Below, piece by piece: positions 6,001 to 9,000 of a DNA stretch of 9,362 bases. Position 1 is the first letter of the stretch. Every line of letters starts with the position of its first letter. Position numbers: made by a program. This DNA comes from Thermotogota bacterium (GTDB lineage: Bacteria; Bipolaricaulota; Bipolaricaulia; UBA7950; UBA9294). The DNA is taken from the NCBI GenBank assembly GCA_039679545.1, contig JBDKUT010000035.1:1-9362 (forward strand), written 5' to 3'.

Positions 6001-9000
6001 TTCAGGCGAAGATCATCGGGATCAACGAGGAGAAGCACCAGGTTCGCTTGAGCATGCGGAACCTGTTCGGCCCCCCCGAGGTTCCGACGGCGCCCGTCGA
6101 CGAGAGCGACCGCGATCGAGGAGGCAAGGGACGACGCCGTCGTGGTGCCGCTCCCGGAACTCCCACGGGCGGCAAGGAGCGAGGTCCGAAGGCGCGAGAA
6201 CGCGAGCGCGTCGACCGACGCTTCCTCGACGAAGGCGGGCACGAGTCGCTTAGCATGCGCGATCTGCTCGGCAAAGCGGGCATTGACGACGAATCCTAGT
6301 CCAAAGGTACTTGTGCAGAGTAAGCAAGGAGGATTGTAGATGAACAAGGGCGAATTCATCGATCGGCTGGCCGACAAGTCGAGCCTGACGAAGAAGGAAG
6401 CGAGAAAGCTCCTCGACGGAGTCCTCGATCTGATCCAGAGCACCCTCCTCGAGGGCGAGGAGGTCAAGCTCGTCGGGTTCGGGAAGTTCGCTGTCCGCGC
6501 TCGCAAGGCGAGCAGTCGCATCAACCCGCAGACCAAGCGCCCGATTCAGGTCGAGGCGAAGGTCGTTCCCCTGTTCAAGCCGGGAAAGGAGCTGAAGCGG
6601 CGGATCGAGAAGGCCCTCAAGGTCGCGCCGAAGGGCGTCACGCGAAAGTAGCGTGACGCTTTTCACCCCAGCGAAATGACCCAACGGCCGGCGACAAACG
6701 CCGGCCGTTCTCTTCGTCTCTTGTCGAACGCACCCGCTACGCGTGTCCGACGATGCGCAGCCGTTCGGCCATGACGATCGCCCGCAACTCATCCACGGCC
6801 GTGGCAAGGTCGCCGTTCAAAACCAGGTAGTCGAAGATCTCCAGGCTCTTCATTTCTCGCGCTGCCGCACGCAGCCGCTCGGAGATCTCGGCCTCCGATT
6901 CCGACCCGCGTGCGCGCAGTCGCTCGCCCAGCTGGCTGAGCGACGGAGGCGCGAAGAACACGAAGGAGAGCGTCACGTCCGGAACGCCCACGCGTCGGAG
7001 CGTGCAGGCTCCCTGCACATCGACGTTCAGCACGACGTCCAGCCCCTGCGCCGTCAGCCGCTTCATCTCCGCCTTCGACGTCCCGTACCGGTCGCCGAGG
7101 TACACAGCGTGTTCGATGAACCCCCCCGCCTCAACCAGGTCCGCAAACTCGGCGTCGGACACGAAGTAGTAGTCGACGCCGTTCCGCTCTCCCGGCCGCG
7201 GGGTGCGCGTCGTATGGGAGACGGAGTAGACGAGGCCCGGCACTCGAGCGATCAGTGCGCTGATCGCCGTGTTCTTGCCGGCGCCCGATGGGCCGGATAC
7301 GACGAACGCGAGGCCCCTCCCCGCTCCCCGGCGGAGGGATGAAAGGTCGTCACTCGACATTCTGAACCTGCTCCCGCATTTGTTCGACACACATCTTCAT
7401 ATCCAGAACCGTGGCGACGATCTCGCTGTCGCGGGCCTTCGAACCGAGTGTGTTGATCTCGCGGAGGAACTCCTGACCGAGGAAGTCCAGCTCCTTTCCC
7501 ACGGGTGACGTTCTGCGGAAAAGCTCCCGCGCCCTCGCGATGTGCCCCTTCAACCGGACCAGCTCTTCCTGGATGTCGAAGCGGTCTGCGTAGAGAACGA
7601 CCTCTGTCTCGAGGCGCTCCGGGTCGATCGCGACGTCAAGGCCCTCGATCCGCTCGAGAAGCTTGTCCCGCAGCCCGGTGAGTACCGATGGGAGGCACCC
7701 TTCAATCGCCGTCGTACCGGACTCCAGAGCATCCGTCAACCGGGCAAGCTCGGTTCGCAGCACCCCGCCTTCCCGCTCACGAGCCGAGATCAACGCTGCG
7801 AGTGCCACCTCCAGCGCGCGCTCTGCGGCAGGCCACAGCGCCTCGTCGCTCTCCTCGCGGATCTGGAAGCCGCCGGCGCGAATAAGGTCGCCCAAGGTCG
7901 GCGGTGCTTCGAGCTCGAGCTCGTCGGAGAGCTCTTGCAGCGCGGCGTGAACGCGGCGGGCGAGCGCACGATCGACGTTAGGACCGTCACCCGGCCCCTC
8001 GTTCTCCTCGATGGCCAGCCACACGCCGACATCGCCGCGAGCCAGCGCTCCCCGGATCTTCTCCTCGATCTGGGCGTGGAGCCACGGACGTTCGCCGACC
8101 GACCGGATCCGCACGCTGAGGAACCGGTGATTGACCGACCGAATCGTCGCCTCGACCCTCCACCCGTCGAGCGCCGCCGCACCGGCCCCAAACCCGGTCA
8201 TGCTTCGCATTGGCTCAATCCCCCCTGCGCTATCGTAACCCCCGCGTACCCCACGACCGCTGTCCGATCCCCAGTCGAGTCCCCCGACGTCTCGTAGGCA
8301 ACGAGCGACGACCCTCTCCAGCCCCTTCGACTCGCGAGAGCGAGCAGGGTCGCGATCGCCCCCACACCGCAGATCGAGAAGCGACCCTCCACGCAGACTC
8401 GGTAGAACCGGGCCGGGTCGACCGCGAGGATCGGATCGAGCGCCACACGGTCCCGCTCCCTTGCGACCGAATCCGCCTCGTAATGGGTGAAGTCACTCGA
8501 CGCCACAACCCACGTCACGCGCCCTCCCGTCGTCTCGAGCAGCGCCGCCGCGCCCGCGCTGAGTTCTTCCAGCGACCCTGGCTGTACACAGACCGGAACG
8601 ATCGGGACCGGGTCGTCCCACAAGTCCTGCAGGAACGGAAGCTCGACCTCGACCGAGTGCTCGCGGTGGAACGCGGGCTCGTAGATCTGCATTCCCGCCG
8701 CCACCAGCGTCCTGATCGTTTCGCGATCAAGCGGCACATCACCGAGCGGGGTACGCCAGGCCGCCGTATCGGACAACGAGAATGTCGGTCCAAGGCCTGT
8801 GTGGCTCGCGCCGAGCAGGATCACCACGTCCGGGCGTCCGCATTCGAGCGCCCGCCGAAACGTTGCCCCGGCCACGCGCCCCGAGTACGGATACCCCGCG
8901 TGCGGGACCACCAGCCCCACCGATTCTCGTGCACTACGCACCATCGGCCGTTCGCCCAGGAGCCGACGCACGGTCGACCTCAGGACGTCCGGATCCCCAG

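Follow-up and report, generated by a model that had tools for sequence, protein, structure and literature searches.

Omega/Rpb6 is generally regarded as a part of every cellular RNA polymerase, or of nearly every one, and omega is the smallest of the polymerase subunits. Mycoplasma and Ureaplasma have been named "likely the only exceptions" (Cheng et al. 2023, PMC9973325): neither annotation nor similarity reveals an rpoZ in them, the position after gmk and a screen of small proteins yield nothing omega-like, and their enzyme must function as alpha2-beta-beta'. The same study describes the chlamydial omega, CTL0286, which was "missing" for decades and was found by multistep BLAST, gmk synteny and AlphaFold; its gene is the next one after gmk, its key residues are conserved, and stepwise BLASTP can reach it (PMC9973325). 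In 18,302 of 23,517 complete genomes, the gene directly downstream of gmk is omega (PMC9973325). For the enzymes of (p)ppGpp metabolism, Atkinson et al. 2011 (PMC3153485) describe free-living lineages of the PVC superphylum without a RelA/SpoT-homologue (RSH) synthetase or hydrolase domain.

Here we analysed the end of the gmk operon in a member of the Bipolaricaulota. The window is a stretch of 9,362 nucleotides (contig JBDKUT010000035.1, positions 1 to 9,362) and carries the following features:

6340..6651, plus strand: gene for an HU-type DNA-binding protein, 103 aa (PF00216, E 3.1e-30; ORF table)
6635..6663, plus strand: hairpin with a perfect 9-bp stem and a 7-nt loop, then TTTT (read from the sequence)
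6683..6709, no strand assigned: second hairpin, perfect 11-bp G+C-rich stem and 5-nt loop (read from the sequence)
6737..7360, minus strand: guanylate kinase gene gmk, 207 aa, the last gene of its operon (PF00625, E 6e-43)
7350..8210, minus strand: yicC-like endoribonuclease gene of 286 aa that shares 11 nt with gmk (PF03755 and PF08340)
8198..9055, minus strand: Memo-like gene (AmmeMemoRadiSam system protein B type), the first of the operon (PF01875, E 2e-57)

The ORF table and Pfam bear out the coordinates and identities that a genome-wide survey's note had given for HU and gmk. The two genes are not divergent, as that note had it, but convergent, tail to tail. The 85-bp spacer between them (6652-6736) has two perfect hairpins and no ORF, and no rpoZ follows gmk. 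The 9-bp-stem hairpin spans 6635-6659, overlaps the HU stop codon and is likely the HU terminator; the consensus scan missed it because its T run comprises four T rather than five. The second hairpin (6683-6709) lies 27 nt past the gmk stop and, read from sequence, would mark the end of the Memo-yicC-gmk operon, at the expected rpoZ site, presumably as a terminator. The gmk-rpoZ synteny is broken in the window. Across the phylum, gmk is present in 168 of 184 genomes; the Memo-yicC-gmk order recurs in the single-contig genome G005 and in loci of family f3, where, in G005 and the readable f3 loci, gmk is followed by acpS and then by a convergent rpsA. Open frames of up to 489 aa over gmk in family f3 do not represent a Gmk-omega fusion, because the extra length is an upstream, off-frame extension over yicC.

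Searches for the omega family gave the same picture beyond this locus. In the genome that holds the window, the PF01192 model had no match at E<=10, and TIGR00690 had none. Over the six-frame DNA of 184 phylum genomes, the single-contig G005 and G006 among them, PF01192 found nothing above its cut-off, while all 14 control genomes gave matches; the absence that the survey had reported was thus reproduced on repeat. Sub-threshold matches at E<=1 occur in 56 of the 184 genomes. The best of these (23 bits, in G087) covers 23 residues of a 45-codon frame, with no ATG, GTG or TTG start seen upstream of the matched stretch, in a spacer of ~90 bp that leads from a sigma gene to a ZIP transporter gene. 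With an E of 1.4e-4 per genome, or ~0.03 over 184 genomes, we judge it, as a borderline case, to be a chance match; a relic is also conceivable. The runner-up is interrupted by stop codons, sits in an unrelated locus and is likewise judged to be chance. When the omega HMM was run with filters off on all six-frame ORFs of G000 and G005, the best E was 1.8, compared with 1.3e-37 for the E. coli control, and orthologous ORFs of the two genomes had no sub-threshold omega signal in common. A Pfam scan of 300 small G005 proteins, which left out 13 low-scoring ORFs and three that straddle locus borders, contained no PF01192 match. Comparison of G000 and G005 in six frames yielded no additional conserved small ORF of unknown kind, and the 179 small-protein pairs conserved between them reached hhalign probabilities of at most 8.9% against an omega alignment. 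That alignment comprised 67 of the best 150 representatives, with identities to E. coli omega of 43% or more; Terrabacterial and archaeal omega are missing from these profile-profile tests because the representatives found were proteobacteria-like. A homologue search with E. coli RpoZ returned near-identical enterobacterial sequences only. Permissive regular expressions modelled on the omega helix motif gave four hits in the six frames of the genome under study, all within ORFs of 108-629 aa; most resemble off-frame reads, and none falls in an ORF of the size typical for omega (~60-100 aa). It holds for Bipolaricaulota that no gene is recognisable as omega (Rpb6 family) by any sequence method used here, and our literature searches found no description of this absence.

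In this phylum the genes for the two large subunits have been parted. In line with the survey's note, rpoB is followed by a NUDIX gene in this genome and in G005 and is unlinked to rpoC, the two lying ~500 kb apart in the single contig of G005; rpoB-NUDIX and rpoC with a preceding zinc-ribbon gene are separate operons. The beta' subunit is 1657 aa long and carries an extra stretch of about 55-80 residues at ~1486-1567, just before conserved region H near the C-terminus. A model of this stretch (pLDDT 84) shows a long helix and a small strand-helix-strand unit. Its best structural match, a weak one, is the RNA polymerase beta subunit of C. difficile (TM 0.51, rmsd 1.7 over 59 columns, E 9e-3), the weaker matches include E. 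coli beta2-beta-i4, and no listed structure matched at E<=0.001. The predicted fold of the extra module thus weakly matches RNA polymerase beta subunits. An internalised omega is not what this stretch looks like, given a fold of beta type and no omega chain among the matches listed.

The likeliest reading, which we hold with modest confidence, is that the phylum's ancestor lost rpoZ; we infer a genuine loss and not a copy too altered to be recognised. The polymerase of Bipolaricaulota would then assemble and function as alpha2-beta-beta'. Such an enzyme is feasible in principle, since model bacteria can dispense with omega and Mycoplasma has none. Chaperones, parts of beta' peculiar to this lineage or a new partner might then assist the folding of the 1657-aa beta'. 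Incomplete metagenome-assembled genomes (MAGs), or loss of a short gene in assembly or binning, could mimic such an absence, and the genome at hand (93.55% complete, 163 contigs) and the fragmented MAGs that make up most of the phylum invite that suspicion. We regard an artefact as highly implausible, because the absence holds in two single-contig genomes, G005 (96% complete) and G006 (99%), and in 71 genomes with a completeness of 90% or more and a contamination of 5% or less; moreover, the search covered six-frame DNA rather than gene calls, and the region downstream of gmk is assembled and filled by other genes. It is possible, if rather unlikely, that an omega is present, strongly diverged, moved away from gmk and hidden among small unannotated ORFs where HMMs cannot see it. 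Omega is short and fast-evolving, the chlamydial protein provides a precedent (PMC9973325), and ~40 small ORFs of G005 belong to no Pfam family. One small protein with traits that would suit this role is the following:

C21:10772-11062, minus strand: unannotated small protein of the genome under study, no known family, 65-102 aa across the phylum

It occurs in 173 of the 184 genomes, in every one of the 71 that pass the completeness and contamination limits given above, and in all 11 families, as a single copy in nearly all carriers (G166 has three matches). A conserved core of ~55 residues with variable tails is what one would expect of a protein of the core machinery. Against such a hidden omega, the hhalign probability of this protein versus omega is 0.5%, in 24 of 25 loci the gene and a phosphoglucomutase-like gene point the same way, and the orthologous ORFs of G000 and G005 share no omega signal. 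The fold of the protein is tentatively predicted to resemble an HTH rather than omega. Other conserved unknowns are unlike omega by sequence profile; visual inspection alone assigned several of them to membrane or coiled-coil proteins. A 67-69 aa protein (C15:19818-20027 in this genome), a 106-aa helical protein of an ECF sigma/anti-sigma operon (C3:3978-4298) and a 56-aa coiled-coil protein showed no similarity to omega.

A further possibility, and a doubtful one, is that omega was lost and replaced by a non-homologous zinc-ribbon protein made together with beta', as a small subunit or as an assembly factor. The gene concerned lies at the rpoC locus:

C54:24906-25157, minus strand: FmdB-family zinc-ribbon gene (PF09723 and TIGR02605)

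With PF09723 scores of 48.3 and 54.6 bits (cut-off 34.4) and a TIGR02605 score of 60.1 bits (cut-off 31.3), the gene upstream of rpoC belongs to the FmdB family by both curated cut-offs. Its product has two CxxC pairs, whose cysteines C8, C11, C29 and C32 are invariant in 25 sequences. A gene of this type is present in 166 of the 184 genomes and was detected in 10 of the 11 families. In every one of the 30 loci examined (families f1, f2 and f3) it stands directly upstream of rpoC, on the same strand and at a distance of 43-313 bp, and in several f3 genomes the two frames run together, parted by stop codons only. This fixed place, the breadth of occurrence and the separation of rpoC from rpoB in the phylum speak for a replacement. 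Gene neighbourhood alone, however, is weak evidence of binding, the family is widespread in bacteria that have omega, and the genome under study has a second paralogue elsewhere. Family f11, moreover, has the gene in none of nine genomes at the threshold used, yet also lacks omega; in the three f11 loci read, a UvrD-like helicase gene precedes rpoC. Co-folding that paired the zinc-ribbon protein with two parts of beta' (residues 470-1000 and 1390-1657), where the omega site was expected, gave an ipSAE of 0.00 in two runs without controls, a result that weighs neither for nor against binding. We know of no established function for the FmdB family and of no report of its fixed position upstream of rpoC; a literature search for its function found only unrelated work. 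Taken as a whole, a scenario in which omega was truly lost and the zinc-ribbon protein, which would share a transcript with beta' in three or more of the 11 families, was recruited as a new small subunit or beta' assembly factor seems improbable. If it is true, bacteria would have a counterpart of the zinc-ribbon subunits found in archaeal and eukaryotic polymerases, and an orphan family would gain its first function.

The survey's note had coupled the missing omega to a loss of (p)ppGpp control. Its component observations were sustained: RelA_SpoT (PF04607) is absent from this genome and present in only three of 184 phylum genomes, scattered over three families (11 of 14 controls are positive), and five high-quality genomes (G000, G005, G006, G013 and G085) contain neither HD_4 (PF13328) nor a DksA-type match (PF01258) over cut-off. 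As for a phylum with neither canonical omega nor RSH enzymes, the first half stands, no recognisable omega being found in any of the 184 genomes, and the second has to allow for those three carriers of RelA_SpoT; both hold in the two single-contig genomes and in the 71 more complete ones. The idea that omega and the ppGpp-RNA polymerase axis were lost as one unit is unsupported, because DksA-type proteins are also missing from eight of the 14 controls, all of which have omega, because the ppGpp site at the beta'-omega interface is a proteobacterial feature, and because RSH-less free-living lineages that keep other machinery are known. The latter belong to the PVC superphylum, as set out in the RSH survey cited above (PMC3153485). 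The absence of omega and that of RSH enzymes are better read as independent traits.

What sets the omega result apart is that it concerns a deep-branching phylum whose members are presumably free-living. It would mean one of two things: that bacteria can do without omega even when their genomes are not reduced and host-associated, or that a novel form or stand-in of omega, beyond recognition so far, is still to be identified. Both bear on the folding and assembly of a very large beta' and on attempts to reconstruct the ancestral bacterial polymerase. The question can be tested: the genes for alpha, beta and beta' have been located, as have two small candidates. With its missing (p)ppGpp enzymes, the phylum becomes one more free-living RSH-less lineage, which extends a known pattern and is of lesser novelty.

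Lane and Darst are said to have shown in 2010 that lineage-specific insertions in beta and beta' are built from a repeated beta-beta' module (BBM2). The extra beta' module described here resembles such insertions in that its predicted fold weakly matches RNA polymerase beta subunits; it sits immediately ahead of conserved region H, towards the end of beta'. Like the PVC lineages, as portrayed by Atkinson et al. 2011 (PMC3153485), Bipolaricaulota are RSH-less, in a different phylum and with a RelA_SpoT domain in three of 184 genomes. With the chlamydial omega they share the lack of an annotated gene and of appreciable similarity, so that their absence, too, may be apparent only; yet CTL0286 adjoins gmk, whereas in the window a convergent gene comes after gmk, and HMM and profile-profile searches were empty. 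Mycoplasma and Ureaplasma are alike in having no recognisable rpoZ, and none after gmk, but these are host-associated Mollicutes with reduced genomes, whereas in Bipolaricaulota the pattern spans a whole phylum with genomes of 0.7-4.1 Mb.

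The Pfam model of omega, the smallest RNA polymerase subunit (rpoZ; PF01192), finds nothing in this genome even with E<=10 (2.35 Mb, 163 contigs, completeness 93.55%, contamination 3.62%). Across the phylum it exceeds its cut-off in 0 of 184 genomes and in 14 of 14 controls, which bears out the claim of the genome-wide survey's note that Bipolaricaulota have no recognisable omega. Of the 184 genomes, 71 reach at least 90% completeness with no more than 5% contamination, and two, G005 (96%) and G006 (99%), are single-contig relatives. TIGR00690, a model that finds only 9 of the 14 controls, also has no match in our genome. 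Sub-threshold PF01192 matches (E<=1) occur in 56 phylum genomes. The top one, in genome G087, scores 23 bits, with E 1.4e-4 per genome or ~0.03 over 184; it comprises 23 residues like the main omega helix, at 1501-1569 (+) of locus L001 (G087:C113), inside a 45-codon frame located where ~90 bp separate a sigma-factor gene from a ZIP transporter gene. No ATG, GTG or TTG start is seen ahead of the match, and a run of N lies ~50 bp off. The runner-up, in G083, is interrupted by stop codons and comes from an unrelated locus. Both are probably chance matches; that in G087 is borderline and might be a relic. That Bipolaricaulota lack a recognisable omega is a real feature of the phylum, and no artefact of assembly.

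Among complete genomes, rpoZ directly follows gmk in 18,302 of 23,517 (PMC9973325). The corresponding locus lies in the window.

Features of the window (protein-coding genes from open reading frames and Pfam matches)
142-1041 (-), era
about 1196-2335 (+), amidohydrolase
2323-3174 (+), ispE-like kinase
3171-3785 (+), cmk
3782-4417 (+), acyltransferase
4428-6299 (+), rpsA (S1)
6340-6651 (+), HU
6635-6659, hairpin 1, overlaps the HU stop codon; perfect 9-bp stem, then TTTT
6683-6709, hairpin 2, perfect 11-bp stem
6737-7360 (-), gmk
7350-8210 (-), yicC
8198-9055 (-), Memo-like
9131-9203 (+), tRNA-Gln(CTG)

The survey had placed HU and gmk correctly but called them divergent, whereas they converge. 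Their spacer, 85 bp from stop codon to stop codon, holds both hairpins and no ORF, and we conclude from this that the Memo-yicC-gmk operon stops at the usual place of rpoZ. In G005 acpS comes next after Memo-yicC-gmk, and beyond it lies a convergent rpsA; the same holds for the three loci of family f3 that are legible in full (L041, L042 and L050). A gmk fusion in f3 was considered and rejected, the long gmk-containing open frames being off-frame reads upstream of gmk. The conservation of a 185-aa frame at 6250-6807, antisense to HU, is an HU shadow only. The tRNA-Gln gene is divergent from the Memo-yicC-gmk operon, an arrangement that recurs upstream of Memo in f3 loci, where it is visible as a conserved off-frame 'REGFEPP' read.

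An omega hidden elsewhere was sought among small proteins. Our genome was re-called (2315 genes, 90% of the DNA), which reproduced the window genes, and 1249 genes were called on the complete G005 sequence of 1,324,338 bp. BLASTP matches in G005 were obtained for 226 of the 630 own proteins of 40-170 aa; 179 of them meet the length and coverage filters and lead to 156 G005 proteins. A Pfam scan took in 150 of these 156 conserved partners and, from the 166 other small genes of G005, another 150, all but 13 ORFs of low score and 3 genes crossing a locus border. Of four further partners, one was later scanned in Pfam, three in NCBIfam, and one, of 35 aa, in neither. No scanned small G005 protein matches PF01192. 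Those without a family are, judged by eye, mainly membrane proteins, transposase fragments and low-scoring frames, and the few that NCBIfam assigned (hydrogenase protease, FtsL-like, Prp-like, KH-like) include no omega. Comparing the six-frame ORFs of both genomes brought up L32, paralogues and shadows of HU, rRNA and tRNA genes, and no new conserved small ORF. With an omega HMM from 67 sequences and all filters off, the best E among six-frame ORFs of at least 30 aa in either genome was 1.8, against 1.3e-37 for E. coli omega; hhalign of the 179 conserved pairs gave a probability of at most 8.9%, the omega alignment behind both tests consisting of proteobacteria-like sequences only.

One small protein is near-universal in the phylum (own genome, C21:10772-11062 (-), 96 aa; G005, L094:19321-19566 (+), 82 aa). 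Of the 184 genomes 173 have it, among them all 71 of high quality, and it is present in each of the 11 families, as a single copy nearly everywhere it occurs (exception: G166, three matches). A word-based search of 5.8 billion proteins retrieved only 41 relatives, and those with a named source are all hypothetical proteins from Bipolaricaulota or Acetothermia. An alignment of 33 members (65-102 aa) has a core of ~55 residues, variable and often basic tails, and invariant Y19, E24, G35, W43, P49 and P65. The protein has no Pfam or NCBIfam family; Pfam at E<=10 gives no lead, its commonest weak match being HTH_53 (4 of 33 members). Profile search of PDB sequences gave 5 matches (E 0.3-1.2), none to RNA polymerase, and hhalign against omega gave 0.5%. 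Its AlphaFold model (pLDDT 76, pTM 0.55; H7-29, E36-38, H39-46, H50-58, E70-72) has no Foldseek match with E<=0.001, and the ESM Atlas returned Bipolaricaulota clusters only (0.95 and 0.94). In 24 of 25 loci, drawn from many families, the next gene downstream is a co-oriented phosphoglucomutase-like one. We conclude that the protein is phylum-specific, predicted to be HTH-like, and probably not omega-like. Another small protein, of 106 aa and without a family (own C3:3978-4298 (-); G005 L117:13221-13538 (-)), looks all-helical from its sequence, is 67% identical between two families, and is encoded by the third gene of an ECF sigma/zf-HC2 anti-sigma operon, followed by the gene of a small putative membrane protein.

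The genes of the large polymerase subunits are arranged as follows.

Genes around rpoB and rpoC in our genome
C60:1025-1510 (-), NUDIX hydrolase gene, overlapping or abutting the rpoB end
C60:1485-4850, rpoB, 1121 aa; NUDIX hydrolase gene next
C54:19858-24831 (L056:462-5432) (-), rpoC, 1657 aa; then rpsL-rpsG-fusA
C54:24906-25157 (L056:5507-5758) (-), FmdB-family zinc-ribbon gene, 84 aa, directly upstream of rpoC

rpoB and rpoC are indeed unlinked, as the survey had it: they occupy separate contigs here and lie ~500 kb apart in single-contig G005, where a NUDIX gene (1139524-1139958) again overlaps or abuts the rpoB end. rpoC stands at the head of the str genes rpsL-rpsG-fusA. The zinc-ribbon protein before it scores 48.3 bits with PF09723 and 60.1 bits with TIGR02605; the G005 gene lies at L089:15520-15744, and such proteins upstream of rpoC measure 72-101 aa. 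In 30 of 30 loci from families f1, f2 and f3 (L130-L159) the gene is on the strand of rpoC, 43-313 bp before its start. The FmdB-family zinc ribbon occurs in 166 of 184 genomes, but none of the nine from family f11 has it; three legible loci there have a UvrD-like helicase gene before rpoC. A second paralogue lies at C46:9775-10002 in our genome. Between secE and rplK, the place where NusG is expected, lies a gene (C60:7028-8158 (-); G005 1132998-1134107 (+)) for 369-376 aa, about twice the usual NusG length.

Compared with the 1188-aa chain 8i23_D, beta' has ordinary termini and owes its length to three internal lineage-specific stretches, ~133-286, ~1158-1389 and ~1486-1567, of which the second sits at the trigger-loop insertion place of other lineages. 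The third, near the C-terminus, spans ~1499-1567 in the comparison with 8i23_D; across 15 genomes from three families its length is conserved, and its sequence in part. Modelled by itself (pLDDT 84), it forms a long helix and a strand-helix-strand unit. Its top Foldseek match, a weak one, is the beta subunit of C. difficile RNA polymerase (E 9e-3; TM 0.51, rmsd 1.7 over 59 columns), weaker ones include E. coli beta2-beta-i4 domains, none has E<=0.001, and no omega chain is among the matches listed. These weak matches suggest that the stretch may have a kind of fold seen in RNA polymerase beta.

RelA_SpoT domains were found in 3 of 184 phylum genomes, each from another family, and in 11 of 14 controls. 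The phylum's only three such genes (L126-L129; G011:C298, G145:C97, G072:C8) have open frames of 327-395 aa, two adjacent in G011. Five high-quality genomes contain no HD_4 domain and no DksA-type zinc finger over cut-off. DksA is also absent from 8 of 14 controls, all eight of which have omega. The ppGpp site between beta' and omega is characteristic of Proteobacteria. Free-living lineages without RSH include the PVC superphylum, some spirochaetes and a Thermoanaerobacter (PMC3153485). Given these three points, there is no ground for joining the two absences, which the survey's note had read as loss (or unrecognisable divergence) of omega together with the (p)ppGpp-RNAP control axis.

How, then, is the absence of omega to be read? 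The empty place after gmk and the searches of small proteins lead us to lean, by a little, towards true loss. A copy diverged beyond recognition is a possible though rather unlikely explanation; the chlamydial omega was tracked down with stepwise BLAST, synteny with gmk, and AlphaFold (PMC9973325). The zinc-ribbon protein is the best lead for a candidate product made together with beta', and its constant place before rpoC would suit a replacement of omega, a sub-case of loss; its absence from f11 speaks against this, and we consider such a replacement improbable. Literature on FmdB and zinc ribbons yielded only unrelated work, no text joining Acetothermia and rpoZ was found in the literature searched, and among the matches listed for Bipolaricaulota and omega none concerned RNA polymerase, by title or abstract opening. 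The finding is moderately surprising and open to direct test. Omega was likewise not found in Mycoplasma and Ureaplasma, according to the same paper (PMC9973325). A polymerase without omega is already known; here it would extend to a whole phylum.
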